From: a virus
Taxonomy: Duplodnaviria > Heunggongvirae > Uroviricota > Caudoviricetes
IMG/VR virus record: IMGVR_UViG_3300043411_001076
Direction: 5' to 3' (one strand)
DNA: 64,000 bases
A program made the position numbers and the translations under genes. Under the pieces are notes generated by a model, which saw nothing but the letters and a program-made list of their open reading frames with translations, was not told the origin of the DNA and did not search any database. Of the stretch, positions 3,124 through 26,607 are shown piece by piece (the stretch's first letter is position 1; every line of letters starts with the position of its first letter).

Positions 3124-3762
3124 ATGTTAAAACAAAATCAATTATTTTATATCAATACGTATATCACATACAAAAATAATAATTTTGATATTTTGCAAGT
3201 AAATAATTTATTGGAAGGATTAAGTACAATAGACTTAAAAGAAATACAACAGATAAAAGAAGATATCGATTATATATTTGACGGGATGCCTGTAGAAAAT
3301 AGTCTTACAGAGGGAAGAATAAATGCATTATACGCTGAATGTATGTCTGATTTCCAGTCATTTCAGTGGAAGTGTTGTTTATCAACAGCAAGGATGTTAG
3401 TTAGAACTGATTCTAAATACCGATCCATTTATCTGTTTATGATGGGGAGATGTTATCAGTCATTAAATGCAATAGACTTATCTGTTTTTGTTTATCAGAA
3501 AACTCCTATTTATAAACTATATTTATGGATTGGATCTCTATGGAGAGATCCGCACATGATGAGTATTGAATCTATAAATAATGAACCTGATTCTGTCTGT
3601 TTGGAATGGTGGAAAGACAAAAAGAAACTTACTGTTTACATAGATTCTGATAAAATATCTTATTTGCAAGTGTCGGGTCCGTCCATACTAAATGATATGG
3701 TAGACGGAATATTGACGGAAGAAAACGCAGAAGGAGTATTTCAATGGATTTTGAAAGGTTAG
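3124..3762 (+). CDS. hypothetical protein
   Basis: ORF track starts at TTG 3112 inside terminator T-run; first ATG 3124 preceded by GAGGGAAAGG. Confidence 0.5.
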   Translation: MLKQNQLFYINTYITYKNNNFDILQVNNLLEGLSTIDLKEIQQIKEDIDYIFDGMPVENSLTEGRINALYAECMSDFQSFQWKCCLSTARMLVRTDSKYRSIYLFMMGRCYQSLNAIDLSVFVYQKTPIYKLYLWIGSLWRDPHMMSIESINNEPDSVCLEWWKDKKKLTVYIDSDKISYLQVSGPSILNDMVDGILTEENAEGVFQWILKG

Positions 3763-5438
3763 AAAGAACTATTATAGATAATCCTTCTGATGTTTTATTA
3801 TGTGAGGCGGTCCTAACACAGATTAAAAGAAATAAAGCATTAAGTGACTCCATAGAAGATCATTTGATCTTATCTGATCAACCTGAATTATTAAGTATTA
3901 TAAATGGAGTTCTTAATAAGTCCTATAATAATATTGAGGATTTATATAAGATAATAAAGGCCCGTAAGATAGCCTGGGAAGAATCTTATTCATTTGGATT
4001 TTCTAAGATTAAAGCCGAAAATAAGTCCTTATCAATTCGATTTATTAATTATTTATTCGAAAATGTAAATGATGATTTAGTAGTAGGCATGTTTAATACT
4101 TACTGTGAGATACATGTTCCAATTTATATCACGGATAAGTTGTCAGATACTAAGTACGTATTACTACTAAAATATTTTATTAAAGATGTGGAAAAAATAC
4201 AAACGAAAGAAATTAATAAACTTCATGTAAAATCATTAGTAAATGTTAAAAAGGAAATAGCAAGTAGTATAGTTTTTATCATTAAAACCTTAATTGATGC
4301 CGTACAAACAGAGAAAATAATATCATTCAAACAGATTCATCCATTTCTCACAGAAGAGTTAGGTACGGATATTTTAATAGATGAGCGTATTTTTAATTCT
4401 CCATTATCAATAGTAGAAGATAAATATACGCATGATTATCCATGTGGATCTTTAAGAAAAAATTCAAAAGATGCAAATTATGAAATGCAGCAGATTTATC
4501 AAGATTTTTACACAAGAGAAGCAGGATACAGTAGGGCAACACTTCAATACGGAAATCCTGTAGTTCCTTCTTTCCATTTATTTAAATACAAGTCATCGAA
4601 GACCATCGGATCTTTGAAATTGAAAGATGGATCGTTACAATACGAGATTACCTATGAAGCATTTTATATAAAATCAGTCACAGTAGGAAATCACGATGTA
4701 TTCTATAACCAATGTTCTTCAAACTATCTTCTAGGAGATGCTATAGGACATGGACTTAGACTATATATCCGCAAAAGTAAAATAGATACTTCATTTCGAG
4801 ATTTTTTAATCGAAAATTCAGTATTCATGTATGCTTCAGAACTTATAAAGATATTAGGTATTAGTACCATACAAGCAAATGGTAATTTCTCATATAGACT
4901 GAACAACTACAACAAATTTATCATTTGTGCGGGAAAATATTTACGCGGAGAACATAATACAAAGAAAACAAATAGCCTTACTACTTTTAAAGTAAATATG
5001 TTTAATAATGCGACACTTAATAGTGATCGGGCCATTTTTTATACTTTGGCTACTAACAATGTATCGTCTATCTCTAGTGAGTTGTACAATATAATCACAA
5101 AAACTAATGGCAGAGAGACATTAGATAAGACATTTAATTTTTTATTTGGAAATGATGACTTATATAAAGAAGTGACTATACATCCAAAAACTGTTAGATC
5201 ATATTATTTTGGGAGTCGTACATACGAAATATCCGCGTATACCTACAATACACCCCTTATTTACGAAACCTCGATGGTTAAAATAAAGCAGTTATTATCA
5301 AAAATAAAAGAGGCTTTAGTTGTTAAAGGAGAAACTAACAGATTAAATGATCCACCTTCATGGATAGATTTTCTTGACTGGAGTACTGTAAGTATAGAAT
5401 ATGCAGACACAATAAGGGCGTTTTTAAGTTTGACATGA
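3744..5438 (+). CDS. hypothetical protein (564 aa), N-terminus MDFERL resembles MDxERL paralog family
   Basis: Long ORF; N-terminal MDFERLERTI similar to starts of genes at 15565-19704. Confidence 0.55.
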   Translation: MDFERLERTIIDNPSDVLLCEAVLTQIKRNKALSDSIEDHLILSDQPELLSIINGVLNKSYNNIEDLYKIIKARKIAWEESYSFGFSKIKAENKSLSIRFINYLFENVNDDLVVGMFNTYCEIHVPIYITDKLSDTKYVLLLKYFIKDVEKIQTKEINKLHVKSLVNVKKEIASSIVFIIKTLIDAVQTEKIISFKQIHPFLTEELGTDILIDERIFNSPLSIVEDKYTHDYPCGSLRKNSKDANYEMQQIYQDFYTREAGYSRATLQYGNPVVPSFHLFKYKSSKTIGSLKLKDGSLQYEITYEAFYIKSVTVGNHDVFYNQCSSNYLLGDAIGHGLRLYIRKSKIDTSFRDFLIENSVFMYASELIKILGISTIQANGNFSYRLNNYNKFIICAGKYLRGEHNTKKTNSLTTFKVNMFNNATLNSDRAIFYTLATNNVSSISSELYNIITKTNGRETLDKTFNFLFGNDDLYKEVTIHPKTVRSYYFGSRTYEISAYTYNTPLIYETSMVKIKQLLSKIKEALVVKGETNRLNDPPSWIDFLDWSTVSIEYADTIRAFLSLT

Positions 5439-13303: not shown

Positions 13304-14194
13304 ATGAAAGAAATCAGTGTTATCGGACTGCTATTTTGTACAATGATTCTAACAGGTTGCGGTGAGCGTGTCTCGATTCAGCCTGGGGAGGTAGGCAAGC
13401 AGCTTACAACAGATGGATTGGAAAAGGATATTCGTAGACCAGGAGCGTTCCGAATGGAACAATGTTGGATCGTAGCTTGTCCACGGCTTGTGCGTCTGCA
13501 AGTACAGAAGGCAACGAAACAATTCAAAATTGATAAACTTCTCCTAATGAAGTCGAATGTAGACTTATCTAATGTAGAAGTCGGTGTTCAGTTTCAGGTA
13601 AAGGATAATGAAGAGGCAATTAATCGTATCTTTGAAGAGGTTCGTCCAGTAGCTGCCTCATCGATTGAGGGTGAAAGTCTATCTGGTAGTTCAGTGTTAA
13701 TTATTACGACTGACATGTTATATAGTACCTATATTGAACGTAAAGCGCCAGATGCTGTTATTTCCGCTCTACGAGAATATACAGTTGAAGAGGCTATGGC
13801 AAAAACTCCAGAAATTGCCAAGTATGCTAAAGATAAAGTCAATGAGATGTTAAAAGACACTCCCATTGAGATTACAGAACTTGGTTTCCCTAATGGGGCT
13901 GGAGAACCACCTCCAGAGGTACTTGAAGCGAAGCGTAAATACTTTGTTGTCGAAGAGGAAACCGCACGTACTCTAAAGAAGTATGAAGCAGCTATCGAAA
14001 TTGAAAAAGCCAGACAAGCTGTTCAGAGAACACGTGTTTCAAACGATCTTGAAAATGCGGAAAAAGCAGGCATACCGTTTGGACTTTATGTTCTTCTGAA
14101 AAACATGGAACGATTTGCAGAGGAAGGTGTTCCTCTCGGTTATGTTCCAATTCAAGCATTTATGGAGCATGGTCAATGCACGCAATCTTTGTAA
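13304..14194 (+). CDS. lipoprotein, SPFH/band-7-like domain (tentative)
   Basis: Signal peptide + lipobox MKEISVIGLLFCTMILTGC; central beta-rich region and C-terminal coiled-coil EAAIEIEKARQAVQRT resemble prohibitin/stomatin family. Confidence 0.5.
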   Translation: MKEISVIGLLFCTMILTGCGERVSIQPGEVGKQLTTDGLEKDIRRPGAFRMEQCWIVACPRLVRLQVQKATKQFKIDKLLLMKSNVDLSNVEVGVQFQVKDNEEAINRIFEEVRPVAASSIEGESLSGSSVLIITTDMLYSTYIERKAPDAVISALREYTVEEAMAKTPEIAKYAKDKVNEMLKDTPIEITELGFPNGAGEPPPEVLEAKRKYFVVEEETARTLKKYEAAIEIEKARQAVQRTRVSNDLENAEKAGIPFGLYVLLKNMERFAEEGVPLGYVPIQAFMEHGQCTQSL

Positions 14195-14541
14195 TTCCTA
14201 GTGGACTTCTTGGTTTTTGCCTACTTATCTTCTTCTTACAAATCTTTTGGTTCGGAGATGTTCCAAAGAAAGTGAGAAAGAAGATAAAGAGAGTAAATTA
14301 CAGTGTCGCAACTATGGCTACACTTTGGATTGTCTGCTTTGTAGCCTTAGCTCATACAAAAGTAATTGACGTGGCCTTGCCTTGGGATAAACAGCCAATG
14401 GCTGAAAATCTTCCAAAGAGAGGTCAAGACCCACAAGTACCAATCCCTGTTGATCCAGGTAATGTTGAAAAACCTTCTCCTCTAAAAGACGAGAAGGAAA
14501 ATAACAAAGAGATTATTAAAGAATTGGATAACAGTCACTGA
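14176..14541 (+). CDS. small membrane protein (2 TM) with Pro-rich tail
   Basis: Hydrophobic segments FVIPSGLLGFCLLIFFLQIFWF and ATMATLWIVCFVALA. Confidence 0.45.
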   Translation: MHAIFVIPSGLLGFCLLIFFLQIFWFGDVPKKVRKKIKRVNYSVATMATLWIVCFVALAHTKVIDVALPWDKQPMAENLPKRGQDPQVPIPVDPGNVEKPSPLKDEKENNKEIIKELDNSH

Positions 14542-14564
14542 CCTTACATGTAGGTCAACAACAA

Positions 14565-14603
14565 AAGGCAGAGGACGTAAAAATTCTCTGCCTTTTTATT
14601 TTT
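14565..14603 (+). terminator. intrinsic terminator
   Basis: AAGGCAGAG...CTCTGCCTT hairpin then TTTTTATTTTT. Confidence 0.65.
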
Positions 14604-14614: not shown

Positions 14615-15553
14615 ATGGATACTGAAAAGATGGTAGGACAGCCATATCTACACTTCAAAGGAAATATCTACACAGTATTAGGATTCTGTAATGTAGACTT
14701 TGGAGGTAATTCAGACGTACTTCATGTAATCTATTGTGATTACATTAAGAGATTACAGGCAACTGATAATCTAGCCTTTCATACTGAAAGCTTATCTGCC
14801 TATAATATAGACAAAGACCTGACTATTCCATTGTCTCACTTTTATAAGGCTACAAGGGAGATTGGTAAATATGAAGAGGAGACAGATTTAACTAGAGAAT
14901 GTCGATCCACGTTTCAACATACCTGGATTAGACCTTTACAGTCATTTACGGATATCCTTGAGGATGGAACTCCTAGATTTAAACAATGTTTAAATTCTAA
15001 AGAATACTGGAAAGTATTTCACATAAGAAATCATTCAGCACCTCATACTTACCAAGATCATACCTACGAAGAATTCCCTATATACTGTGAAGATGATTTA
15101 AATACGGAAGATAACCAATTGCAAGTTAAAATTAATTTATTTAGGAATCTATTCTCAGAAAAAGGACCGGGAATTTACTATTTACAGAATGGTTCTATCC
15201 GTTATTTAGAAAATACAGAGCGTAATAATTATAAAACAACATCTGAACAGTTGTTTGTCAATGCCTCTTATTATAATGACTATTTTGATCATCCAAATGA
15301 TAAAAATAGAGTCACTGTGAACAAGATATCTACTATTGATATTCTAAAAGTCCTATCCCATTTCAATCTATGGGATACGGAGAAGGTGAATAAGCACGTT
15401 GCTCAAATTCAATTTATCCAAAAATGGTTTGAGTATCAAATCACAGTAGATGATTCAAGAAAATTTACATATGATACGCGAAATAATGTTATAGCAAATA
15501 TTCCAGAAAATATATTGGCGTCACTTCTAAGAAAGTTCAAGATTATCTTATAA
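14615..15553 (+). CDS. hypothetical protein with N-terminal DUF1653-like segment
   Basis: YLHFKGNIYTVLGFCN...VLHVIYCDY resembles DUF1653 consensus (YRHYKGxxYxVL...). Confidence 0.5.
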   Translation: MDTEKMVGQPYLHFKGNIYTVLGFCNVDFGGNSDVLHVIYCDYIKRLQATDNLAFHTESLSAYNIDKDLTIPLSHFYKATREIGKYEEETDLTRECRSTFQHTWIRPLQSFTDILEDGTPRFKQCLNSKEYWKVFHIRNHSAPHTYQDHTYEEFPIYCEDDLNTEDNQLQVKINLFRNLFSEKGPGIYYLQNGSIRYLENTERNNYKTTSEQLFVNASYYNDYFDHPNDKNRVTVNKISTIDILKVLSHFNLWDTEKVNKHVAQIQFIQKWFEYQITVDDSRKFTYDTRNNVIANIPENILASLLRKFKIIL

Positions 15554-15564: not shown

Positions 15565-16596
15565 ATGGATGCAGAAAGAATAATAAATCTAGCTATAGCT
15601 GGTGATACCAGTATAAAAGAAGAATTAAATTCAAGAGCAAAAAGAACAAGTGACCCGTTCTTAAAGTGTTTTAATGAGATATACAGACTGAAACCTGCAT
15701 CTCTAGTGGATCATACTGACGAAAAGTTTTCAGAGTATAGCAAATATGGATCAGTTATAGGTAAATATGAAAAGTCCATAGATACAATGTCGGAACAAGA
15801 AATAGATTATTTAGATAAGATCTCCACAAAGTTAGTCCCCGTTTATAAACGAAAAATACATAATAAAAGAAATATGTCATTATCATTTCCAAGTAGGAAC
15901 GTCCTGTTATTGTGTAAACACCTACACATAAAGAACGCAAACTATTTTGATTATTTAGGATGCCTGGAGCCGTTAGGTGGTGAGTGTGCTATAACTTTTA
16001 GTAGTAATACTCCGTTATTTGAAAAGTATTTAGATCCTCTACTGCATGTAGTGGGGGATATTAGATACCTAAATCTAGGTATTTCTTTTAGAAGTCAAAA
16101 AACCCTAGAAAGGGCATGGAGATTAAACCATTTAGATACTTTCATATCTAATGAAGAGTGGTATGTTGATAGATATGCTAATAAGTTAACAAACTATTTG
16201 AGTACTATAAGTTCTATAAAAATAATGAAAATACACGCAAATTGTTTACAGGTATTACCTACCACATGTTCTATTGAAAATTTACATATTCACAGTCTAA
16301 CAAAAAGAATGCTTTTAAAGTTAGACAAAGACGTGAAAATAGATAAATTAATAATTACGGATGAAGTATCCTATATTGATAAAGAAACAGTAAAATGTAT
16401 TATTTCTCTGATAGAAGATTATCCTAATATAAAAGTATTGAGATTATCTTACACAGAATGTATCGATTACACTTCTTATTCTAGGGATGACGAAAATATA
16501 AATAGATTAAAGGATACTATGAAATACTATCATAGTAAAGCTAAAAGAACTAACTATACTAGTTATGGTTATTATGAAGATGATTTACACGATTAA
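15565..16596 (+). CDS. MDxERL paralog family protein 1 (leucine-rich C-terminal region)
   Basis: N-terminal MDAERIINLAIAGD...KRTSDPFLK and YKRK motif shared with four downstream paralogs. Confidence 0.6.
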   Translation: MDAERIINLAIAGDTSIKEELNSRAKRTSDPFLKCFNEIYRLKPASLVDHTDEKFSEYSKYGSVIGKYEKSIDTMSEQEIDYLDKISTKLVPVYKRKIHNKRNMSLSFPSRNVLLLCKHLHIKNANYFDYLGCLEPLGGECAITFSSNTPLFEKYLDPLLHVVGDIRYLNLGISFRSQKTLERAWRLNHLDTFISNEEWYVDRYANKLTNYLSTISSIKIMKIHANCLQVLPTTCSIENLHIHSLTKRMLLKLDKDVKIDKLIITDEVSYIDKETVKCIISLIEDYPNIKVLRLSYTECIDYTSYSRDDENINRLKDTMKYYHSKAKRTNYTSYGYYEDDLHD

Positions 16597-16611
16597 ATTA
16601 AGGAATAAAAA

Positions 16612-17607
16612 ATGGACATTGAGAGACTCTTACATTTGGCGTTAGAAGGTGACACAGGAGTAGTAGGTGACATTAAAAAATACGCTAAAAGGACAGACGA
16701 CATCTTCACAAAATACTTTTCAACTATATTATCCTTAAAAGGATCTACCGTAATAGATAGTATTAAACAACGCCTGTTAGTATCAAATTCTAAATTTGGT
16801 ACTAACTTACAAAAGCTAGATAATTTACATTACTTATCTAACATCTCGTCAGATAATCTTATTTTACTAAATAAATTAGCTGATATGAAAGTTCCTTATT
16901 ATAAGAGAAAGTTTAGTAATCACTATGAGACTTCAAATAATTCATACCCAAACAAAAGGGCTGTGACCTTATTTAGACACTTGCAGATAAATACTCAGGA
17001 CTATGTGAGACACTTTTTCACAGACGACTTTTTTGAAATATTTGCAGAGGGCGATTATGCTCTATCTTTAGATCTAAAATCAAAGAATCTAAATGATATC
17101 CAGACATCTCATATCCTGTCTAGATTTTCTAATCTAAAATTTCTTGATATGAATTCCTATACTATAGGAAATATTGAAGAATCTGAATATGCTAGTTTAA
17201 TGTCTAAACTAGATGTGTTAATTGTAAAAGATAGTTATCCTATAGAAAGGATACTTATGACTTATACTGGAACTAAAAAAGTAGAATACCGATTAAAGCA
17301 GTTATTAGAATATTTAGCCAATAAAGAAATTGGACTTTCACATCTATATCTAGATTCAAATAAAATAAGGTTGCTTCCGAAAAAAGGACATATAAAATGT
17401 CTCTATGTTTATAGGTATACTGATGAGTTATGTTCCATACCAAAAGATTTAAATATAGATGTCGTGGTTATTAATAATCTTGGGAGTCATACTTATTTTC
17501 CAAGAATCGATAAGCTATTAAAGGATAAACCAAATATAAAAGATGTAGATTTTGACCTACAAGGAGTTAGGCGATCCTATAAACTATATAGTGCATATTG
17601 TGTGTAA
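16612..17607 (+). CDS. MDxERL paralog family protein 2
   Basis: MDIERLLHLALEGD...KRTDDIFTK...YYKRK. Confidence 0.6.
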   Translation: MDIERLLHLALEGDTGVVGDIKKYAKRTDDIFTKYFSTILSLKGSTVIDSIKQRLLVSNSKFGTNLQKLDNLHYLSNISSDNLILLNKLADMKVPYYKRKFSNHYETSNNSYPNKRAVTLFRHLQINTQDYVRHFFTDDFFEIFAEGDYALSLDLKSKNLNDIQTSHILSRFSNLKFLDMNSYTIGNIEESEYASLMSKLDVLIVKDSYPIERILMTYTGTKKVEYRLKQLLEYLANKEIGLSHLYLDSNKIRLLPKKGHIKCLYVYRYTDELCSIPKDLNIDVVVINNLGSHTYFPRIDKLLKDKPNIKDVDFDLQGVRRSYKLYSAYCV

Positions 17608-17638
17608 TTCTGGTTATTCTTACACATAAGGAAGTAAG

Positions 17639-18646
17639 ATGGATATAGAAAGGTTGATAGAACTTTATGTTTTCGGTGACAATTCAGTTATACCCTTAAT
17701 AAAAAAGGAATCAAGTAGAAGAAATGATCCCTACTTAAAATTAATTACTAGTTTCATGGCCATGAGAGGCTCATGCTATATTGGGACTCTAGACTATACA
17801 AACTACTCGACATTTGCAGGAGTTATTGCAAAATACAGTGATGCTCTAAAAGACTTCTCATCAGATCAAATGAGAATATTGGAGTTAGTCTGTGAAGGAA
17901 TACCGACGTTTAAGAGAAAATGTCCTATTGATATCCCATTATCTAATAATAGTCTATCCCTTTGTAGGCAGTTTAAGATACAAACGCGAAGAATGTTGAA
18001 TTCTTTATTAGCGGCAAGTAGTTTATTAAATAACCAAAAAGAAATAGATATTGCTTACGAACTAAGAATCCCCCATTATCAACTTAACATATATGAAGAT
18101 ATTATTAAGCTATATGGTATTCAGAAAGGGGTGTTAAAATGGTTTCATTCAGATAATACAATATTTAATAAGTTAATGGACCAGCAGTATGACTTATTTA
18201 ATAATATAGAGTTATTATCCATTGATTATTACCAGGATAGTCAAAGTTATAGGTATCAAAGACTAGATAAATTAAAACATCTGATATTTTCAGGTTATAA
18301 TATAAATTCCACTTTTGATACTTTTAAATTCAAAAATAAGCTAGATATTATAAGTATAAAATCTATCGAAACGGTTAATAAATTACATTACTCAACAAGA
18401 TGTTCAATTATAAAAGTGGAAGAAAAAATATTTTTACGGTACAGCAGTATGGAACTTTCTGGGAGATTACGAAAAATCAAGGAAACTTTATCCTATTTTA
18501 ATGATACCCTTAAAGATGTTGACTCTATACAGATCACTTTCCACTGTTGGATAAATAAAAACCACGCTCACAATACATTTTTAATAGATCGTAGTAAGAC
18601 AATCGAAGAACACATGGATGCAATAAACCAGCTATTTAAAGAGTAA
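17639..18646 (+). CDS. MDxERL paralog family protein 3
   Basis: MDIERLIELYVFGD...RRNDPYLK...FKRK. Confidence 0.6.
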   Translation: MDIERLIELYVFGDNSVIPLIKKESSRRNDPYLKLITSFMAMRGSCYIGTLDYTNYSTFAGVIAKYSDALKDFSSDQMRILELVCEGIPTFKRKCPIDIPLSNNSLSLCRQFKIQTRRMLNSLLAASSLLNNQKEIDIAYELRIPHYQLNIYEDIIKLYGIQKGVLKWFHSDNTIFNKLMDQQYDLFNNIELLSIDYYQDSQSYRYQRLDKLKHLIFSGYNINSTFDTFKFKNKLDIISIKSIETVNKLHYSTRCSIIKVEEKIFLRYSSMELSGRLRKIKETLSYFNDTLKDVDSIQITFHCWINKNHAHNTFLIDRSKTIEEHMDAINQLFKE

Positions 18647-18648
18647 GT

Positions 18649-19704
18649 ATGGACTTTGAAAGGCTATTAACACTTGCCTTAGAGGGGGATAAGGCAGTAT
18701 TAAACGATATAAAAGCAGAAGCAAAAAGAAGATGTTCCCCTTATATGCACTTGGTATATGGTCTTCTAAAAGAAATAGGAGACGAGAATATAGACTACAA
18801 TTACAAATCGTCGTTTTCTAATATACTAGAGAAAAATGTTGAAACTCTAAAGGGTTTAAGCAATGAAGAGTATGAAGTACTGAGGTTAATAGCAAGTAAA
18901 ATACCGTATTACAAGAGAAGTAGTCCGTTAAAGAAGGACAATATGTATAACGATTCTATTTTTAGACTGTGTACATATTTTAAAATAGACTCCGTAGTCT
19001 GTATGCATAACGTTCAAAGACTAAACTCTGTACATGGTAAATACTTAGAGAAAAACCTAGCGTATAAGATTTCTGAAACGGTTTCAGATAATAAAGAAAT
19101 CTATAAATTTATTAGAAGTGTTAAGGATAACACACGATTCCTTGATATCCCTACAAATTTAGCAAATTTAATTTACTATCCAAATGTATACAAGAACAAA
19201 CGTGTTAGTTGGGACGTACTGTACAATTTAAAATACTTAAAATTATCTGGGCTGAATTTTGGAAATGGTAAAATAAATCCTTTAATAGAAGCTGCACCAC
19301 ATTTAGAGTTTTTGGATGTTAATGCATTTGAGTTAAAACAAGATTCTCTACCAGAAACTATGAATCTAAAAGTCCTAAAAATATCAAATAGTGTAGGACT
19401 TAATAATATTAATCTGCCTTATACTGAGCATATGCAGATAGATAAGTTAATATTATCTGATCCGATCTCAGCGGCAGATTTTAATAGTTTTAAAAAACTA
19501 CTTTATATACTATTTAATAGTAAATATAGCATACATAAGGTACACTACGGTATTTCAAATTATTTCTATGGAAAGAAGGGGAAAATAAATGTAAAATGGT
19601 ATACGATAGATACATCTACTGATAGTATCGATGATATTTATCGTGACTTAGAGAGGATCAGTAAAAAATTAATGTTAAAAGAGAGCAACGCAGATAAATC
19701 TTAG
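18649..19704 (+). CDS. MDxERL paralog family protein 4
   Basis: MDFERLLTLALEGD...KRRCSPYMH...YYKRS. Confidence 0.6.
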   Translation: MDFERLLTLALEGDKAVLNDIKAEAKRRCSPYMHLVYGLLKEIGDENIDYNYKSSFSNILEKNVETLKGLSNEEYEVLRLIASKIPYYKRSSPLKKDNMYNDSIFRLCTYFKIDSVVCMHNVQRLNSVHGKYLEKNLAYKISETVSDNKEIYKFIRSVKDNTRFLDIPTNLANLIYYPNVYKNKRVSWDVLYNLKYLKLSGLNFGNGKINPLIEAAPHLEFLDVNAFELKQDSLPETMNLKVLKISNSVGLNNINLPYTEHMQIDKLILSDPISAADFNSFKKLLYILFNSKYSIHKVHYGISNYFYGKKGKINVKWYTIDTSTDSIDDIYRDLERISKKLMLKESNADKS

Positions 19705-20516
19705 GTTATCTTCGATAGGTTAGGGAAACAGTATTTCAAGGCTGCTCTATCAGCTATCTTCAAAGTATCACCTAGTTTTAAAGTATGTAATTTCGGGGAT
19801 TTTAATAAGTATAGATTCTCTATATCCCTAATAGGATTCTTACTAAGAATTAGAACCCCTAGATTTGGGAATCGACATTTTTCCAGTCCTTCTAAAGATG
19901 TCACTGCATTATTCGTTAAATTTAGCAACTGTAATTTTTTACAGTTCAATTCATGTAAATTATAAATACTATTAATTAAATTGTTACCAAGATCTAAGTA
20001 TTTAAGATTTGGCAAATTCCATGTACGTATTAGGTCTATATCAGTTATCTTATTGTAATCTAATGAAAGATGACTTAAACTTGGAAAACTTAGATTCTCA
20101 CTGCCTTCTAAAGAGCTTATTTGATTATTGACACATATTAGTTTATCTAAAGATATTGCGTTTAAATAATTGATTCCTGCTAAAGAAGAAATACCTGTAT
20201 CAGTTATCCATAGTTCTTTAAGATTATTAGCATTTACTCCTGTAAGCCACTGGATATCGTTTAAAGCTTTATTGTTAAATTCCCATTTCTCTCCATTCAA
20301 ATCCAGATTAATATTATAATTGGTTTTAAGATATTCTAAAAGAAAGTCTGGATTTGCTCCTCTTCTACTTAATAGAGAATAGTAGGTTGAAAGGAGTGAT
20401 GGGTCTGTTGGATTTAGTCGAATTAAATGTTCCAATCTCTCCAATACAGAATCGCTAGAAGCTCTAATATGCTTTGCTAGTTTCTTAATAGACTTGTGGA
20501 TAGTCATAAAATACAA
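19701..20516 (-). CDS. leucine-rich repeat (internalin/SDS22-type LRR) protein, IKKLA paralog 1
   Basis: ~22-residue repeats LxxLxxLxLxxNxIxxIxxL (e.g. LNLTNNAVTSLEGLEKCRFPNLGVLILSKNPIRDIENL); N-terminal IKKLAKHIR shared with 20525 and 22282 genes. Confidence 0.7.
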   Translation of the reverse strand: MYFMTIHKSIKKLAKHIRASSDSVLERLEHLIRLNPTDPSLLSTYYSLLSRRGANPDFLLEYLKTNYNINLDLNGEKWEFNNKALNDIQWLTGVNANNLKELWITDTGISSLAGINYLNAISLDKLICVNNQISSLEGSENLSFPSLSHLSLDYNKITDIDLIRTWNLPNLKYLDLGNNLINSIYNLHELNCKKLQLLNLTNNAVTSLEGLEKCRFPNLGVLILSKNPIRDIENLYLLKSPKLHTLKLGDTLKIADRAALKYCFPNLSKIT

Positions 20517-20524
20517 CTCACAAT

Positions 20525-21109
20525 TTATATTAAAATTTCAGCGTCTGGGAATTTCAATTGAAGACTATCGTACACAACACTTTTATTAATTATGGGATTT
20601 TTTGTGAGATCTAAAGTTTTCAAATTATCTGCGTCTAATTCTAATAATTCATCCACATGAGTCAGATTGTTTGATGATAGAATAAGATGCTCTAAATTAT
20701 CAGCCTTAAGATTCTGTAAGTCTCTTAAAGAAACTAACATATTATTGGCTACTAAAATGCTCTGTAGATTAGGAGCAATAAGCCCACCTATTCCTCTAAG
20801 GCTTACCAACTCATTATTAGATAAATCTAATTCTTCAAGATTATTTAGTCTCAAACCGCTCATCCATAAAATATGTGGGACTCCATGATTAAATAAATCT
20901 AAAAATGGGGATTTTATATCTAATACATCACCACCAATAAAATTATCTAAGTAATAAGGATAAGCCCCAGACCTGGACCATAGTTTATTATATAACTGCC
21001 AAGCTAAAACATTACTATCATTCTTTTTCAACTTAGCGGCTGCATTATCTAGTTCTCTCTGATTTGCAATCCGAATCATACTAGCTAATTTTTTTATCTC
21101 TGTATACAT
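20525..21109 (-). CDS. leucine-rich repeat protein, IKKLA paralog 2
   Basis: NLEELDLSNNELVSLRGIGGLIAPNLQSILVANNMLVSLRDLQNL... LRR units; N-terminal EIKKLASMIR. Confidence 0.7.
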   Translation of the reverse strand: MYTEIKKLASMIRIANQRELDNAAAKLKKNDSNVLAWQLYNKLWSRSGAYPYYLDNFIGGDVLDIKSPFLDLFNHGVPHILWMSGLRLNNLEELDLSNNELVSLRGIGGLIAPNLQSILVANNMLVSLRDLQNLKADNLEHLILSSNNLTHVDELLELDADNLKTLDLTKNPIINKSVVYDSLQLKFPDAEILI

Positions 21110-21183
21110 AACTACCTAAATTTGTGATTTATTATATAAAATCGGTATTTGTTTTCGGGGCTTATACTATAAGGAACAAGAGA

Positions 21184-22239
21184 ATGGAACTAGAAAGAAT
21201 TTATTCTTTAGCGTCATTAAAAGATCCATCATATGCCTCTTCTATTTTATCAGAAGGAAATAGAAGAAACGACCCATTAATTTCATTAATTGCTCACCTT
21301 CTGGATTTATATTCTTCTAAGCTATCCGTAAACTCTGTTGACAGTAATATGGTTAAAGAAGATTATAGAACGAGTTCTACATACAGTAGAATCCTTACTC
21401 AATATAAGCAACTTATTGATTCATTATCAGAAGAACAGATTCAGTATTTAATCACGTTAACAGAGGGACTTAATTATAGATACAAGTTATGTCCACCAAA
21501 ACTAAAAGACATATCGACTAATATACTCAAGCTCTGTAATTATTTTTGTATAACGAAAACTAATTTCATGGACCAATTACATTACCATGCTGTTACACAT
21601 CCAAGTATAAATAAAGAACTAAGATATGATCTTATGCTAGGAACTCACCTACCAATTTCAGATTTTTTAGGAAATAGTAAACAACATGGGGTACTTAAAA
21701 GACTTAGAATTCCAACATCTCAACTATTAACTTTGGAAGATCAGGGTTCGGTAGGGAACGTGGATTATTTGTATTTAGATTATATTAATAGGCATACAGC
21801 TATGCGGTTTACACATCGAAAAACCATAGAAGAAGCTTATTATAAGGCTTTTACATTATTTTCTAATTTGAAACATCTCAAAATATTAAATTTTCAATAT
21901 GACAATATTCCATTACCTTCTTTAGAATCTTTGGAATTGGATGTAACTTTCGATCCAAGATGTGATATACAGTCAGACAAATTAATTAATTATGTAAATA
22001 GATTTATAAATGTGAAAAAACTCATCATATCTAATAAAATAAATGTGAGATCCAATATTAATGGGGAACTATACCTAGAGCCAGGAGATATAAAATTATT
22101 ATGGATGTTGGAAAAATCTAAAATAGATAATTTATATGTGAAAGTAAAATCTCGGCAGAATACTATTCTAGTAAATTCTACTCCTGGAACCGACTACTGT
22201 TCTTCTATCTTTAACAAGATTAAGGAACTTGACAGTTAA
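21184..22239 (+). CDS. MDxERL paralog family protein 5
   Basis: MELERIYSLASLKD...NRRNDPLISL; ORF-track start 21124 extended, ATG 21184 preceded by TAAGGAACAAGAGA like the other paralogs. Confidence 0.55.
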   Translation: MELERIYSLASLKDPSYASSILSEGNRRNDPLISLIAHLLDLYSSKLSVNSVDSNMVKEDYRTSSTYSRILTQYKQLIDSLSEEQIQYLITLTEGLNYRYKLCPPKLKDISTNILKLCNYFCITKTNFMDQLHYHAVTHPSINKELRYDLMLGTHLPISDFLGNSKQHGVLKRLRIPTSQLLTLEDQGSVGNVDYLYLDYINRHTAMRFTHRKTIEEAYYKAFTLFSNLKHLKILNFQYDNIPLPSLESLELDVTFDPRCDIQSDKLINYVNRFINVKKLIISNKINVRSNINGELYLEPGDIKLLWMLEKSKIDNLYVKVKSRQNTILVNSTPGTDYCSSIFNKIKELDS

Positions 22240-22248
22240 AATATGTAG

Positions 22249-22274
22249 GAACTATGACACAAAAGTCATAGTTC
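22249..22274. terminator. hairpin between convergent genes
   Basis: GAACTATGAC-acaaaa-GTCATAGTTC, 10-bp stem, no T-run. Confidence 0.4.
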
Positions 22275-22281
22275 ATATATG

Positions 22282-23088
22282 TCAAGTAATTATAGTCAAA
22301 TTTTTATGTTTTTTTGATTTATATATTTGATTTGCTAGATTAGGATCTAAACCTAATAAATAAACATCTAGACCTTTTGTCCTTCCCTCTGCTAGTTTGT
22401 TCAACTGATTTACGATATATGGCGCATTGGACAGAGGGTTTCCATTTAAGAACAGATTTTTTAATTTAGGAAAATTTAAATCCTCAATTCCATCTAGATC
22501 GTAGATTTTATTTAATACAAGATGTATGTTTTTCAAATTAGGTGCTGTTATATGAGATAATTCAGATATGTGACTTATATTGTTATGGTTTAACAACAGA
22601 TTTCTTAATACAGGAGCATCCATTTGCGGGATTTTCGATATTTTATTCTTTTCTAAATTTATTCTTATTACCTTAGATAAGTCTAATGTGGACAGATCAT
22701 CAATATCTGTAAGCTTATTATTAGAAAAATCAATCTCTATCAAGTTAGGAGTAATAGCATCTCCTAATCCTTCTATTGATGTGAGATTAGCGTAGTCATA
22801 AGCAAGGACTTCTAAATTAGGAAAAGTAAGCCCTGCCATCCATTGTAAATCATCAACCGCACCGCCTAAGTTAAAAGCATCCAAGTGTAAATAGAAACCA
22901 TACGTCTCTGATACCCAATTTATGTATATTTCTGGATCTTCCGTTAGTCTATTACATAATTTAAGATAGGCTTTTCTAATAGAAACATCTCTAGGATCAA
23001 GTTGTAATCGTCTTCCTAGAATTTCTAATTCTGCATTGGTTGATGACAAGCGAATATGAGAAGCGATTCTTTTTATTGCTTTAAACAT
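22282..23088 (-). CDS. leucine-rich repeat protein, IKKLA paralog 3
   Basis: LRR units LxxLxLxxNKIxxIxxL (e.g. LKNLFLNGNPLSNAPY, IRINLEKNKISKIPQM); N-terminal FKAIKRIASHIR. Confidence 0.7.
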   Translation of the reverse strand: MFKAIKRIASHIRLSSTNAELEILGRRLQLDPRDVSIRKAYLKLCNRLTEDPEIYINWVSETYGFYLHLDAFNLGGAVDDLQWMAGLTFPNLEVLAYDYANLTSIEGLGDAITPNLIEIDFSNNKLTDIDDLSTLDLSKVIRINLEKNKISKIPQMDAPVLRNLLLNHNNISHISELSHITAPNLKNIHLVLNKIYDLDGIEDLNFPKLKNLFLNGNPLSNAPYIVNQLNKLAEGRTKGLDVYLLGLDPNLANQIYKSKKHKNLTIIT

Positions 23089-23120
23089 ATTAATTTTCCA
23101 TAGTTAATATAAAATAAAAA

Positions 23121-23149
23121 GGGGAAGTATCTACTTCCCCTTTTTATTT
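23121..23149. terminator. bidirectional intrinsic terminator
   Basis: AAAAA-GGGGAAGTATCTACTTCCCC-TTTTTATTT. Confidence 0.65.
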
Positions 23150-23163: not shown

Positions 23164-26100
23164 TTACTGTTCGCATCCACCAGCAGAGCAGGCAGCTTCA
23201 CCTTGAAATGAAGTTCCATCTTCTAATTCAAGCATAAATTCATAGTTCACAGGCTTGAAATTAGAAACAATATTATTCCATAGGAATTCATCTTTTTCAG
23301 TAACTACTTCTTCTCTTGGAGCAAAGGCATAATCTTTATCTCCTGAGTAGGGAAGCATCGAGATACCAGAAAACTGGAACCTTCTATCCCATAAGAAATG
23401 TTTTACATCTTCCCATTCATCAGGTTTAACAACGACGGTATTAGACACATTATTCTTAAGTCCTGGATTATCAGTATCTCTGGCAGTTCCGTAAGCAATC
23501 CAATTAGTCTGTGTCAAGAATACCCTCTCCAAAAATTCTAAAGCCGTCATATCATTTCTTGTTACTGCTCCTTCAGGAGCTTCTACACAGAACGTAATAA
23601 CATCTTCTGTGTCATTAACCTTTTCACACATATGGGGATTTATACTCTTGAAAAATTGATAAACTGCTTCACCTGGAGACATACGAACACGTCTAAAATA
23701 TCTCTTAGCATGATGCGGATGTATTCCACTACCCACACAACCTAGAGCTAAGGACGCTGTACCTGAAGGTTTTACTGCGGTAAGTCTAGCAGCAGAATTA
23801 ATACCTAGTAGGGCAGAAAACTTTTCATTTACTTCTTTGCATAATAAGGCTGCCCTTCTCTGAAGATCGGCATTAAAAGCAATAGCAGGGTTATCTACCA
23901 TTCCCGTCATAGAAACGCCCAACAAGGCATCTCTACGAGCAAGTAACTCTGTCACTGGTCCTAAATATGGAAAATCTGTATATCCAGCTTGGCAAGTACC
24001 AATGATTGTAGCTGCCGTCACCGATTCTAAAAATTCTTCTTCTGTCTTACATGCTGCAACATTTACTTCTGATAAATTACAAAACGACCAACCACATAAG
24101 ATATCTCCAATATTGACATTAATATTTCTTTCTTTTAAGAAGATTTGGGCTTTAGAATCAACAACATAGAAAGGATTGAATTGGACCTCGCTACAATTTC
24201 CACTAACAATACCATTAGCGATTACGCTATTCGTTTCGGGCTGAGTGAGACAGTACACATCTGTTCTCTCATCCATTTTCGTAATAGAAACTATTTTTGT
24301 AATGTGTCTTTCGGGCTTATTACAATCTCTACCTCGTTCGTCTAAAACCTGTGTAAGTCTTCTTCCTTTTGCCCCAGGTAATTTAATTGTATTTTCAAAA
24401 GTTATACAATTAGGACGGCTAATAATAAGTTCGTGCATAGGTTGGCATAGATAATCTTTATGGCCACCCTTTCCATCAGGTAACTTACGATAAGCTTCTT
24501 CAGTTCTCCTATACACCTTAGAAACAATTCCAAAACCCATCAAAAGATTTTGAATATCTTCCAATAAATCTCGATTAACTTGTGAAATTCTTAATGAAAC
24601 CGTTTTCTTTTTATCCTTTCCAGAACACAAGACAGTTCCATCAGATACAATCATTCCTGCAATATAGCCAGCCACCATTTCTTTGGTTCCCTTCCAAACA
24701 ACTTCTGGAACCATTTTTTTCAGATCACTGGTAGACTGTCCCTGTAAAATATTCTCAACTACTTTATAGAAATTTGCACCCCCTATTCTCTTTTTTGTTC
24801 CATGATCTTGACTATGCCACCCCAAATCATTTTTATTATTTAATTTGAATAGTTGTCTCTGATCATTAACAATCTTATGTAGTAAATCAGATAATTCGAA
24901 GTCCGACTCCCAAATGTCTATAAACGCACTTTTACCGCTGAAACATCCATCTCCTGTAAGCATTCCGAGAATAAATCCTTGATCCCAGCTTCCCTCCCTC
25001 CCAAATCTTACAGAACCAGAGTTTAACAAAAGAGTATCCCCAACAGATAACTCATGCGTTTCCTTTCTTCCATTAAAAGTAGGGAATTTATGGTTTTCTG
25101 TTACTTTTAATCTCTGCCCATGTTCTGTCTGTATCTCAAATACTTCTGCGCTCTTTTTGGTAAGGAACGCAGAAGTTGCCTTTCTTAGTTTATTTCCCTT
25201 TAATTCTGGAAATATCAGATCCCCTTTACCAACTCTGGTATCTGTATTAACACATAAGGGTATCCCATTTTTCTCCATATCTCCGATTTTCATCCATCCT
25301 TTACTTGTAGAGATCCTAGTATCAGGATGGAAACACGGATTTGTGCCGTAATCTAGACTATCTACAAATAAGAACCCAGGCTCTCCATATTCTTTTGTAG
25401 ATCTAAATAGTCTGCTATACTGTTCAAAAGTTGCTTGACTTCTTAATAGTACTGCCGAATTATTAGCGCGAGATCTCCAAGGATGTGTTTTCCACCATTC
25501 TCCAGTTTTAGCATTAATCATTTCCTCATCATCAATAGAAAATAAGGAAATCGAAGCACTGCGACGGACACCCCCAGCTAATACAGCTTCGCTAGCTAAA
25601 CATACGATGTCATGGCATTCAATAGGTCTTAAATGCCTGCCTTGAACTGAATCTAGTACTTTCCTAATACGACGAATTGCCAATTTAAGAGGGATATGTC
25701 CTGGTGCTCTACCGCCTGATGTAGACAGGTAAGATCCTTTACCTCTTATTTGACTATAAGAAAATTCGGTATAGTAGTCTCCTTCGACATAAGACATAAT
25801 AAGTGCATGCAATGCATCTGCCCATCCTTGGATCGTATCTTCTACGATATGATGTCTTACTTTGTCTTTATTAATATGCTTTAAAGGAGCTAATTGCGCG
25901 ACATGGTGCTTCTGTACTGAAAACCCTGTACCGCATCCACAGAGAAGTAAGAAAAAGGCTTCTTTAAAGAAAGAAAAACGATTGCATGGGCTAAAGCTAC
26001 AATTATAAATTCGTTCATTGATCGCTTTTACGCCCTTACCACCAAACTGCATAGATCGCATACTTGGAAGGGAAACACGATCTCTAACTTTATTAAAAGC

Positions 26101-26607
26101 CCATCTGATATCATTTTCAATTTGAGGAAACTTTTCAATGTGCATATTCTGTACACGGTCTATACTTTCCCCATGTACTTCGCGTCTAAATACTTCCTTC
26201 TTATACTGAGAATATTTAGCAACGTGAATGAAATCTGCTATTACTTCTTTAGGTAATCCTGGAAGCCTTTGATTTCTAAGTTCACTTCTCTTATTTCTAT
26301 AAAGAATATAAGACTTGGCTGCTTGGGGTAGATTAGCGCCAACTAAGATGTTTTCGACAATATCTTGAATAAGTTCTACATCAACGAAATCTTTATTTTC
26401 GGTGTCATTTGTCTTAGACAGTAAGATATACTGTGAAACTGCCTTACAAACATTATTTGTTAAATCTTCTAAATTATAAGTTTTAACATCATCACAAGAT
26501 AGTAAGCATTTATAAATAGCGTCTTTTATTTTTCCCTTTTCAAACGAGACAAGAGAACCATTTCGCTTTTTCACTAAAAAATTGGTATCGTAAATCGACA
26601 TGGACAA
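23164..26607 (-). CDS. ribonucleotide reductase catalytic subunit (ATP-cone; class II-like NPC[S]E active-site motif) interrupted by an intein
   Basis: N-terminal ATP-cone-like region; extein junction GTNP|CSEVQF matches RNR active-site NPCGE; C-terminal redox pair C-x4-C (AACSAGGCEQ); 380-aa Hint+LAGLIDADG insertion. Confidence 0.85.
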   Translation of the reverse strand: MSMSIYDTNFLVKKRNGSLVSFEKGKIKDAIYKCLLSCDDVKTYNLEDLTNNVCKAVSQYILLSKTNDTENKDFVDVELIQDIVENILVGANLPQAAKSYILYRNKRSELRNQRLPGLPKEVIADFIHVAKYSQYKKEVFRREVHGESIDRVQNMHIEKFPQIENDIRWAFNKVRDRVSLPSMRSMQFGGKGVKAINERIYNCSFSPCNRFSFFKEAFFLLLCGCGTGFSVQKHHVAQLAPLKHINKDKVRHHIVEDTIQGWADALHALIMSYVEGDYYTEFSYSQIRGKGSYLSTSGGRAPGHIPLKLAIRRIRKVLDSVQGRHLRPIECHDIVCLASEAVLAGGVRRSASISLFSIDDEEMINAKTGEWWKTHPWRSRANNSAVLLRSQATFEQYSRLFRSTKEYGEPGFLFVDSLDYGTNPCFHPDTRISTSKGWMKIGDMEKNGIPLCVNTDTRVGKGDLIFPELKGNKLRKATSAFLTKKSAEVFEIQTEHGQRLKVTENHKFPTFNGRKETHELSVGDTLLLNSGSVRFGREGSWDQGFILGMLTGDGCFSGKSAFIDIWESDFELSDLLHKIVNDQRQLFKLNNKNDLGWHSQDHGTKKRIGGANFYKVVENILQGQSTSDLKKMVPEVVWKGTKEMVAGYIAGMIVSDGTVLCSGKDKKKTVSLRISQVNRDLLEDIQNLLMGFGIVSKVYRRTEEAYRKLPDGKGGHKDYLCQPMHELIISRPNCITFENTIKLPGAKGRRLTQVLDERGRDCNKPERHITKIVSITKMDERTDVYCLTQPETNSVIANGIVSGNCSEVQFNPFYVVDSKAQIFLKERNINVNIGDILCGWSFCNLSEVNVAACKTEEEFLESVTAATIIGTCQAGYTDFPYLGPVTELLARRDALLGVSMTGMVDNPAIAFNADLQRRAALLCKEVNEKFSALLGINSAARLTAVKPSGTASLALGCVGSGIHPHHAKRYFRRVRMSPGEAVYQFFKSINPHMCEKVNDTEDVITFCVEAPEGAVTRNDMTALEFLERVFLTQTNWIAYGTARDTDNPGLKNNVSNTVVVKPDEWEDVKHFLWDRRFQFSGISMLPYSGDKDYAFAPREEVVTEKDEFLWNNIVSNFKPVNYEFMLELEDGTSFQGEAACSAGGCEQ
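24196..25335 (-). mobile_element. intein (Hint domain + LAGLIDADG homing endonuclease) inserted at RNR catalytic Cys
   Basis: Starts CFHPDTRISTSKGW (block A), LAGLIDADG motifs ILGMLTGDGCF and IAGMIVSDGTV, ends VYCLTQPETNSVIANGIVSGN followed by +1 Cys (blocks F/G); aa 425-804 of host protein. Confidence 0.75.

Follow-up and report, generated by a model that had tools for sequence, protein, structure and literature searches.

Two leucine-rich repeat protein families with new N-terminal modules in an accessory block of a large uncultivated phage

Introduction

Modular phage receptor-binding proteins carry conserved N-terminal anchors. Tail-fibre tips can carry adhesins or assembly proteins such as P2 G, Mu U and T4-type gp38, and the corresponding gene order in phage P2 is W-J-I-H-G. 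[quoted passage not shown]

Here, we describe two protein families, A and B, encoded in one block of a large phage. They resemble the DUF7941 family of the Chimalliviridae (Goslar gp22, gp23, gp86, gp92, gp161 and others) in that many paralogs occur per large phage, a constant N-terminal module precedes variable binding domains (some of them LRR/beta-helix in the DUF7941 case), the genes partly lie scattered outside the main tail module, and the module is restricted to one phage clade. They differ from it in several respects. The A and B modules have no sequence match to any Pfam family, two different modules are present, and nearly all the C-terminal domains are LRRs. Moreover, the virion location of the Goslar proteins comes from mass spectrometry, whereas for the A and B proteins such a location would be a prediction.

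Results

Organization of the block

Positions 15565-23088 of the window (the whole stretch of 64,000 nucleotides that was analysed) contain eight intact ORFs, five on the + strand encoding family A and three on the - strand encoding family B (Table 1). All eight were present where an earlier note on this DNA had placed them. Pairwise BLASTP E values of 1e-7 to 8e-19 within family A and of 1e-14 to 2e-20 within family B bore out its proposal of two paralogous families. We regard the region as an accessory block, bounded by hairpins, in which a large uncultivated phage of contractile-tail type encodes eight soluble LRR proteins. It is surrounded by replication, nucleotide-metabolism and repair-type genes, structural genes not being adjacent.

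Table 1. Features of the block and of the gene at 3744.
Feature	Coordinates	Strand	Description
564-aa protein	3744..5438	+	N-terminus MDFERLERTIIDNPSDV... weakly matches the family B TPR-like hairpin; C-terminal part unrelated
Left border hairpin	14563..14596	+	Intrinsic-terminator-like; 13-bp stem then T-run; closes the upstream Band_7/TM-protein unit
First gene of + unit, 312 aa	14615..15553	+	Marginal DUF1653-like N-terminal match; in neither family
A1, 343 aa	15565..16596	+	Family A LRR protein
A2, 331 aa	16612..17607	+	Family A LRR protein; sister to A1 group
A3, 335 aa	17639..18646	+	Family A LRR protein; dN/dS 0.07
A4, 351 aa	18649..19704	+	Family A LRR protein; member whose structure was modelled
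B1, 268 aa	19701..20507	-	Family B LRR protein; N-module 1-90, then six 24-residue LRRs
B2, 194 aa	20525..21109	-	Family B LRR protein, four LRRs; dN/dS 0.08
B2/A5 divergent spacer	21110..21183	.	Sole in-block spacer >40 nt upstream of a gene start
A5, 351 aa	21184..22239	+	Family A LRR protein; most divergent A group
A5/B3 convergent hairpin	22243..22280	.	16-nt arms, 88% complementary
B3, 268 aa	22282..23088	-	Family B LRR protein; dN/dS 0.15
Right border hairpin	23112..23149	.	Perfect 18-bp arms, GC-containing, T-runs on both strands

The 312-aa gene at the head of the + unit is separated from A1 by 11 nt and is probably co-transcribed with A1-A4. It has an ortholog in the same position in lineage L005; lineage L003 has only a 113-aa DUF1653-like gene there, and the version in lineage L001 carries an extra 309-aa N-terminal extension. 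B1 is convergent with A4, with a 4-nt overlap. The spacer between the divergent B2 and A5 is a putative promoter region serving the B2-B1 unit and A5. On the right, the border hairpin separates the start of B3 from the stop of the ribonucleotide reductase gene. Two starts deserve mention. B1 most likely starts at ATG 20507 rather than at TTG 20516. The ATG of A5 is inside a GTG ORF opening at 21124, and the gene calls of an identical contig use 21184.

Family A proteins carry an irregular LRR solenoid

Family A proteins consist of a helical N-module of about 105 residues, within a conserved N-terminal region of about 125 residues, followed by an irregular LRR solenoid. Among the paralogs the conserved part is the N-module; M1, R5, D14, R27 and S54 are invariant across 18 family members. 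A YYKRK motif, put forward earlier as a family signature, held only in part, the window genes reading VYKRK, YYKRK, TFKRK, YYKRS and YRYKL. The C-termini are leucine-rich as had been noted, but they are more than that, being true LRR solenoids by profile and structure. The solenoid was detectable only by these two routes, the structure being a solenoid of beta-strands and helices and the family profile matching LRR proteins of solved structure. With single sequences, the five window proteins gave no Pfam LRR match at E ≤ 1 and no Pfam or PHROG match. Neither the A nor the B N-module matched Pfam, PHROGs or PDB sequences. As judged from sequence comparison, both N-modules are new protein-family modules.

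The A4 model is confident (pTM 0.80) and shows helices at residues 3-105, about nine beta-strand/helix repeats at 110-321 with an irregular spacing of 18-34 residues, and a C-terminal helix at 327-350. In this model the solenoid resembles ribonuclease-inhibitor and F-box-LRR proteins. However, when ribonuclease inhibitor, RanGAP, NLR and F-box/LRR proteins (FBXL, GALA) were compared with family A, the identity was 6-17%, the repeat spacing of family A was irregular, no F-box signature was found, and Foldseek E values reached only 4e-3 to 1e-4. Ribonuclease-inhibitor-like LRRs are characterised by repeats of 28 and 29 residues in regular alternation, the helix being on the convex side. None of 14 family A N-modules matched F-box families, even at E ≤ 10. 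Giant-virus repeat-protein expansions (LRR, F-box/LRR, FNIP, ankyrin) also form paralog arrays in one virus, and they gave the best viral structural matches to family A, but weak ones; giant viruses infect eukaryotes, whereas the present virus, which has Baseplate_J and gp25-like genes, belongs to the tailed phages.

Family B proteins carry regular 24-residue repeats

In family B, an N-module of about 90 residues, made of a helix ('SIKKLAxxIR') and a TPR-like hairpin, is followed by four to six regular LRRs. The three proteins matched Pfam LRR_4 with 81.5 (B1), 35.0 and 37.9 bits (cut-off 27), and LRR_8 with 58.9, 30.5 and 34.2 bits. LRRs had indeed been seen behind the IKKLAxxIR module, but with a supposed period of 22 residues. 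We found a period of 24 residues in 13 of the 14 inter-repeat spacings and 21 in one, the repeats starting at positions 96, 120, 144, 168, 192 and 216. The register of these tandem repeats, which have the LxxLxLxxN core of LRRs, is clear. As suggested earlier, both families are repeat-type binding proteins.

The label "internalin-type" given to these proteins was not upheld. As in Listeria internalins, the genes form a genome-clustered multigene family, an N-terminal helical cap precedes regular LRRs, and LRR_4 and LRR_8 match. Unlike internalins, family B proteins have no signal peptide, Internalin_N cap, inter-repeat Ig domain or LPXTG/GW cell-wall anchor, and the period is 24, not 22. Internalin_N and the LRR_adjacent Ig-like domain were absent both from Pfam matches at E ≤ 1 and from the N-module scan at E ≤ 10. 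A signal peptide or membrane segment was looked for in the sequences of the block proteins and none was found; in the first 36 residues of the B proteins, the maximal 12-residue Kyte-Doolittle mean is 0.32-0.52, and their C-termini read ...NLSKIT, ...AEILI and ...NLTIIT. The best generic neighbours of the family B repeats are SDS22/PPP1R7 LRR proteins (E 1e-21 to 1e-24), with which they have in common the NxIxxLxGL second repeat half. Family B differs from these by its 24-residue period and its phage-specific N-module, and true members score far higher (E 1e-48 to 1e-76).

The gene at 3744 begins MDFERL, as previously remarked, yet it does not belong to family A (BLASTP E 3.9; no match to the A N-module HMM at E ≤ 10). 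Instead, its 564-aa product weakly matches part of the family B N-module, with 14.6 bits against the hairpin (E 0.002 among 1785 ORFs). Searched alone, the protein scored 18.6 bits, as compared to a maximum of 8.5 in 2000 shuffles. It had no Pfam or PHROG match.

Both families are confined to one phage clade and are old

Using the family A profile against 1.84 billion representative proteins, only 10 proteins were retrieved (E 7e-114 to 2e-9), a similarity far beyond chance; all those traced to a contig lie within the syntenic phage block. The family B search gave only three family-level matches, followed by generic LRR proteins at E 1e-24 and weaker. Neither family was found in GenBank phages, and family A, which was also searched in IMG/VR, was not found there. 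Both families are confined to one clade of large unannotated phages related to huge phages.

The block is located between the Band_7 and ribonucleotide reductase genes in four of four lineages (L001, L002, L003/L004 and L005), with four to five copies of family A and two to four of family B. A1 has orthologs in L001 (6275-7306; 92% identity, dN/dS 0.15), L003 (10001-11029) and L005 (3651-4640), whereas A2 has no positional ortholog in L003 or L005. In every case A5 closes the row of A genes towards the ribonucleotide reductase gene; it is 75% identical to its L001 ortholog (dN/dS 0.20). B1 has a dN/dS of 0.14, and the ortholog of B3 is at 9086-9940 in L005 (46% identity). In three deeply diverged lineages, paralogs group with those at the same genomic position, which dates the duplications to before the lineage split. 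A lineage-specific expansion, if understood as recent, is therefore not supported. Best cross-lineage matches, mostly positional orthologs, are 26-46% identical, as compared to 79-87% for the neighbouring Band_7 protein. The block genes are old duplicates, in fixed order in four lineages, that diverge much faster than the flanking core genes.

Among relatives, dN/dS was 0.02-0.21 in N-modules and LRR parts alike; the eight genes are true paralogs under purifying selection. dS is uneven along the block, from 0.26 to 0.83, suggesting exchange by recombination. Between close relatives, substitutions affected 10 of the 70 positions of the concave LRR face, as compared to 31 of the 126 convex ones (p=0.10). 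The concave face is not enriched in substitutions, and receptor-driven diversification is therefore not apparent over this short range.

The family B module occurs in a tail gene cluster

The family B N-module is joined to different C-terminal domains, as in modular receptor-binding proteins. Besides LRR proteins, it heads a 202-aa non-LRR protein on contigs L007 (12576-13184) and L010 (12915-13523), with 54 and 51 bits, respectively. L010 and the L003 block belong to one contig of 133,673 bp. The gene order in L010 is gp25-like, Baseplate_J, 429 aa, 960 aa, 202-aa B-module protein, 1783 aa. This order mirrors W-J-I-H-G of P2 and places the 202-aa gene in the slot of a tail-fibre assembly protein or adhesin. 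L007, a variant of the L010 phage, has three additional B-type LRR genes at precisely the junction of the 960-aa and 202-aa genes. In this sister lineage they constitute a present-or-absent insert directly after the putative tail-fibre gene, the 960-aa 'fibre' being assigned by gene position and a weak pectinesterase-like match (E 0.025).

A small B-module gene directly after a putative fibre gene and a variable insert at exactly the same place recall the P2 G, Mu U and gp38 type of protein. Unlike that type, the binding part is an LRR, and the three window B genes are far from any tail gene. The 202-aa protein had no Pfam, PHROG or PDB sequence match and no homology to known tail-fibre assembly families. 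B-type genes lie in the tail/baseplate module in the sister lineage (L007, L010), which is not so for the eight window genes.

Contig L013 overlaps the window end exactly and reaches 5.5 kb further. It holds a fourth B gene, closest to the tail-module B copies (38-42% identity, E 1e-43), adjoining a holin-like gene and a gene in common with a 485-kb huge phage. The family A module was found only in the cassette and has no link to any structural gene; this, and the distance of the window cassette from structural genes, weigh against a tail role.

Discussion

We infer from the sequences that both families combine a constant docking module with an LRR binder. Each N-module would dock a variable LRR binder onto a shared partner, following the known phage scheme of a constant N-terminal anchor and a variable binding domain. 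The common partner proposed in the earlier note agrees with the modules being separable and with the B module also occurring on non-LRR proteins. For family B, the sole functional context that emerged is that of the tail module. Its partner would most likely be a tail-fibre or baseplate component, and the B proteins would be accessory parts of the virion that can be exchanged, acting as adhesins or in receptor binding. Since family B is tied to tail genes in relatives, its members may be exchangeable host-recognition parts, and we tentatively favour the prediction that they are tail-associated in this way. LRR solenoids are usually monomers and classical receptor-binding proteins trimers, which counts against this reading. 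Family A, always inherited with family B, might serve the same process or be an intracellular binder.

A serious but somewhat less likely alternative is that the proteins are intracellular host-takeover or anti-defence binders whose LRR surfaces bind and block host proteins; family A would then block nuclease-type defence effectors as ribonuclease inhibitor clamps RNases. Consistent with this, the cassette ends a + strand block rich in genes of the repair or counter-defence type, among them those for ADP-ribosylglycohydrolase, Ro60/TROVE, PAP2 and Band_7 lipoprotein. The bounding hairpins recall an accessory island. The rapid divergence, the variable copy number and the signs of recombination also fit, and the proteins lack a signal peptide or membrane segment. 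However, general profile libraries revealed no known anti-defence family, and paralog identity and order are stable across deep divergence, unlike typical fast-turnover anti-defence islands. The location of B-type genes and the B module within the tail module, the purifying selection throughout and the conserved concave face also argue against it. A more specific version, which we consider rather improbable, is a cytoplasmic repertoire of LRR 'clamps' in which each old paralog neutralises a different host defence effector (nuclease, toxin). Such a repertoire would parallel, on the viral side, ribonuclease inhibitor and NLR sensor domains, with N-modules coupling the clamps to a shared phage machine. 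To our knowledge, no LRR-based anti-defence of this type is on record for phages.

It is unlikely that the proteins are adhesins, displayed on the virion or released, whose target is not the bacterium but a eukaryotic surface: mucus, for example, or an animal or protist with which the bacterial host is associated. LRR families are common in eukaryote-interacting bacteria and giant viruses, and eukaryotic SDS22/PPP1R7-type and internalin-like proteins come closest in sequence to the LRRs of family B; but these matches reflect generic repeat similarity, far weaker than those of true members, and a secretion signal and anchor are absent. We give slightly less credit still to substrate adaptors for phage-encoded proteolysis or remodelling, in which, following F-box logic, the LRR picks host proteins for destruction while the family A module docks on a phage machine such as the FtsH/MoxR/vWA set 10-45 kb off. 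The phage does encode an FtsH with M41 peptidase, an ivWA protein, a MoxR-like AAA_5 protein and a vWA protein, and giant-virus F-box/LRR proteins are among the top viral Foldseek matches. Nevertheless, the case is one of architecture, F-box matches are lacking in the N-modules, the FtsH genes are not co-located with the cassette, and a Skp1/cullin partner, Skp1 being what F-box proteins bind in an SCF ligase, is not known from bacteria. Finally, chance N-terminal likeness or non-functional remnants, for which nothing speaks but the lack of Pfam or PHROG matches to single family A sequences, are refuted by the pairwise and profile E values, the confident family A model, and cross-lineage orthologs intact in four lineages with dN/dS of 0.07-0.20.

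Eukaryotic innate immunity and many bacterial effectors use LRR proteins as their standard scaffold for binding, but in phages such proteins are rare and unstudied. The two new N-modules described here are each coupled to an LRR scaffold and have persisted, despite deep divergence, as multi-gene sets in a conserved order. If the family B proteins are exchangeable tail adhesins, they would add an LRR-based class to phage receptor-binding parts and provide a natural docking-module-plus-binder design; if the proteins act inside the cell, they would be host-protein binders of a new class. Whichever applies, the two modules stand for new protein families open to search and test.

Two paralogous families at 15565-23088

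An earlier note on this DNA had proposed eight open reading frames forming two families, and all eight are present in the window (Table): five family A genes (A1-A5) on the + strand and three family B genes (B1-B3) on the - strand. Pairwise BLASTP among the window proteins gave E values of 1e-7 to 8e-19 within family A, with alignments mostly confined to residues 1 to 90-140, and of 1e-14 to 2e-20 within family B, values that dispel a suspicion of chance N-terminal similarity. Among these paralogs, mean identity was 27% in the A module as compared to 14% in the remainder of the protein; in family B it was about 30% in the N-terminal module and the remainder alike. With pI values of 7.6-9.1, the family A proteins are basic, those of family B are for the most part acidic to neutral, and no signal peptide or membrane segment was detected in any of them.

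A 5-sequence alignment gave a poor family A model (pLDDT 52), and the AlphaFold2 model of A4 obtained with a 12-sequence alignment (pLDDT 80.5, pTM 0.80) was used. Residues 3-83 of this model form six helices, the PYYKRx motif sits on a basic loop, about nine beta-strand/helix repeats cover residues 110-321, and a long C-terminal helix caps the protein. Foldseek matches of the family A model were weak, the best viral ones being giant-virus LRR and F-box/LRR proteins; the family A profile also matched solved plant LRR receptors. Family B proteins consist of a module of about 90 residues, the hairpin of which is faintly TPR-like, followed by 4-6 repeats of consensus LxxLxLxxNxIxSLxGLxxLxxPN, and they exceed the Pfam thresholds for LRR_4 and LRR_8. 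These repeats had been described as canonical 22-residue LRRs; their period is in fact 24 residues. Neither module matched a sequence family in Pfam, PHROG or PDB.

The two modules were also compared with each other. hhalign of the full A module against the full B module gave a probability of 3.5%. With the hairpins only, the two aligned in the expected register, family A residues 1-45 (ERLxxLAxxGDxSVxxxIKxEAKRRxDP) facing family B residues ~20-58 (P 0.008, probability 4.8%), and HMM scores of family A N-termini were within shuffle noise. Because of these low probabilities and shuffle-level scores, homology is not claimed; the two modules may have a common origin.

The gene at 3744, previously likened to family A, encodes a 564-aa protein that proved not to be a member. 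At its N-terminus, MDFERLERTIIDNPSDV..., it resembles the hairpin half of the B module at E 0.002, a value that none of the shuffles approached. The resemblance is between its first ~45 residues and the TPR-like hairpin of that module, and the remainder is unrelated to family A or B. At the position matching its start, proteins of L007, a tail-module contig of a sister lineage, read MDFERI. In view of the hairpin match, the B module, whole or in part, is fused to C-terminal domains of at least three types.

Features of the window and of related contigs (window positions unless a contig is named)
Feature	Position	Strand	Remark
DUF4419 protein	403-3054	+	span includes the adjoining ADP-ribosylglycohydrolase; start of + strand block
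564-aa protein	3744-5438	+	no family match
Ro60/TROVE-vWA RNA-binding protein	5569-7194	+	
Band_7/SPFH lipoprotein, then overlapping 121-aa membrane protein	13304-14541	+	lipobox LTGCGE
Strong hairpin	14563-14596		precedes 312-aa gene and A1-A4
Gene directly upstream of A1	14615-15553; L001 4398-6263		309-aa N-terminal extension only in L001
Family A genes	15565-16596, 16612-17607, 17639-18646, 18649-19704, 21184-22239	+	BLASTP
Family B genes	19701-20507, 20525-21109, 22282-23088	-	BLASTP and Pfam
Hairpin	22243-22280		between convergent A5 and B3
Perfect hairpin, 18-bp arms	23112-23149		between B3 and ribonucleotide reductase gene
Ribonucleotide reductase, split by intein	23164-26607	-	Intein_splicing and LAGLIDADG_3 on L002 copy
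Weak Sigma70_r2 match	28944-29786	-	22.9 bits, just below 24-bit cut-off
FtsH/ivWA/MoxR/vWA set	32471-34729 (-), 40691-42235 (+), 62245-63291 (-); L013 4199-6241		
UvrD-like helicase, 1650 aa	43173-48125	-	intein within
Three B-type LRR genes	L007 10001-12579 (present); L010 12884-12914 (absent)		between 960-aa putative fibre gene and 202-aa gene
Fourth B gene, 248 aa	L013 1250-1996	-	~3.5-4.3 kb past window position 64000

Layout, selection and age of the block

The block is located at the junction of the window's + strand and - strand gene blocks. A1-A4 are tightly packed (gaps of 2-31 nt), A4 and B1 converge with a 4-nt overlap, and B2-B1 and A5 diverge out of a 74-nt spacer. No DNA repeats, invertible segments or retroelement-style diversification were found beyond chance-level short repeats, and the upstream regions yielded no motif for late or early promoters, only AAGGA-type ribosome-binding sites being prominent in them. 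For the 309-aa extension seen upstream of A1 in the relative L001, no counterpart exists among the fetched sequences; it constitutes an indel on the cassette's left border.

The same eight genes occur in the same order in a nearly identical contig (L002) and in L001, which is ~90% identical. A dN/dS calculation was run on the window and L001 orthologs. It gave 0.07-0.20 for all eight genes, and 0.02-0.21 with modules and LRR parts scored apart. Because the flanking Band_7 gene shows 99% identity and a dN/dS of 0.03, the cassette genes gain amino-acid changes several-fold faster. A test for diversification of the concave LRR face was negative. Against L001, dS is uneven over 15565-23088, at ~0.8 for B1, B2 and A5 and 0.26-0.50 for A1-A4 and B3 (Band_7, 0.26), which suggests a recombination mosaic across the block.

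Two further lineages carry the block at the same site, between the Band_7/small genes and the ribonucleotide reductase gene, with the orders A A A / B B / A (L003/L004) and A A A / B B B B / A (L005). In trees, paralogs sort by position across lineages into groups A1, A3, A4, A5 and B1, B2, B3, with A2 and L005-B3 as extras. Best cross-lineage matches, mostly positional orthologs, share 26-46% identity as compared to 79-87% for Band_7. From this grouping and these identities, the duplications are old, with every copy kept and all evolving fast; the description as a lineage-specific expansion, if taken to mean a recent one, is not supported. The Band_7 lipoprotein and the 121-aa membrane protein, just upstream of the cassette, are strongly conserved between lineages (79-99% identity).

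The family A profile retrieved 10 proteins among 1.84 billion representative proteins, all of this phage group. With the full-length family B profile, three true relatives came up (E 1e-48 to 1e-76), followed only by generic SDS22-like and internalin-like LRR proteins (E 1e-24 and weaker). A profile of the B module only gave zero matches among 5.8 billion proteins and missed its own members, an outcome put down to the word index; the full-length profile did work. Neither family was present in GenBank phages, the sole B matches being generic LRRs in Listeria records. No IMG/VR match was obtained with a single family A protein as query, and the Band_7 profile matched nothing in JGI metagenomes and, in IMG/VR, only loci that were distant and unrelated.

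Gene content of the phage

The window (G+C ~33%) encodes a family A DNA polymerase, DnaB-like and SNF2 helicases, an intein-bearing UvrD-like helicase, an intein-bearing ribonucleotide reductase, FtsH, an ivWA protein and a Ro60/TROVE protein. The nearest relative of the polymerase is in LR745208, an unannotated 485-kb 'uncultured phage' (35% identity across 91% of length). Baseplate_J and gp25-like genes are present in relatives, and megablast of the region against GenBank phages gave no match. Therefore, the phage is large, uncultivated, of contractile-tail type and far from everything in GenBank. A literature search on the sample accessions yielded neither a habitat nor a host.

Several further observations concern this gene content. 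The L005 ribonucleotide reductase (761 aa) has no intein. Rfam and tRNA scans of the whole window were both empty, with neither Y-RNA nor tRNA. Counter-defence or repair functions are possible for the DUF4419 protein and the ADP-ribosylglycohydrolase, and 28944-29786 may encode a phage sigma factor. FtsH with an M41 peptidase, the ivWA protein (PF19997/PF19996), a MoxR-like AAA_5 ATPase and a 680-aa vWA protein are all phage-encoded, and L005 has a radical-SAM gene near FtsH. This set resembles the 'FtsH ternary' conflict systems of bacteria (PMC7159879).

Family B modules in tail regions of relatives

A family B relative, P0013, lies within a tail module on the 39.7-kb contig L007. Genes follow one another there as gp25-like, Baseplate_J (1146 aa), 429 aa, 960 aa, a run of three B-type LRR genes, a 202-aa gene and 1783 aa; in the 202-aa product the B module is followed by a C-terminal part that is not an LRR. 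Cluster members of the L007 tail proteins (>=90% identity) lie on the 133,673-bp contig bearing the L003 cassette, and a region of that contig (L010) carries the same tail module with the 202-aa gene directly after the 960-aa gene, the three LRR genes being missing. L007 and L010 are variants of one phage. In P2 and Mu, genes G and U are placed after the fibre gene, and the 202-aa gene occupies a like slot after the putative fibre gene. Therefore, from the cluster membership and the L010 tail module, one lineage combines the A/B cassette close to the reductase gene, a gene with the B module in the P2 G/Mu U slot and, at that slot, a present-or-absent insert of B-type LRR genes.

The contig L013, which overlaps the window end exactly and reaches 5.5 kb further, carries a fourth B gene of the window's own phage. 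Its product is closest to the L007 tail copies (38-42% identity), and its neighbours are a holin-like gene and a gene shared with the huge phage LR745208 (42% identity).

Possible roles of the two families

In the best-supported reading, a constant docking module would carry an LRR binder. From gene context in relatives, we infer that family B may dock on the tail; its partner would most likely be a tail or baseplate component, and the B proteins would be accessory adhesins. Other phage receptor-binding proteins have conserved N-terminal anchors, to which the B module with its binder can be likened, and the Goslar DUF7941 family would be a close parallel to family B in such a role. A strong rival is an intracellular role in host binding or anti-defence. 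Tail docking is favoured by the position of B-type genes in L007, and is weakened by the location of the window cassette among replication-type genes, by family A having no structural link and by the absence of concave-face diversification. An F-box-like adaptor role for the phage FtsH/MoxR/vWA set, recalling the F-box/LRR proteins among the weak Foldseek matches, is a weak alternative.

Overall, the LRR scaffold and the module-plus-binder design were already known. Both modules are new, as are the ordered block of two families and the conservation of this block in a clade related to huge phages.
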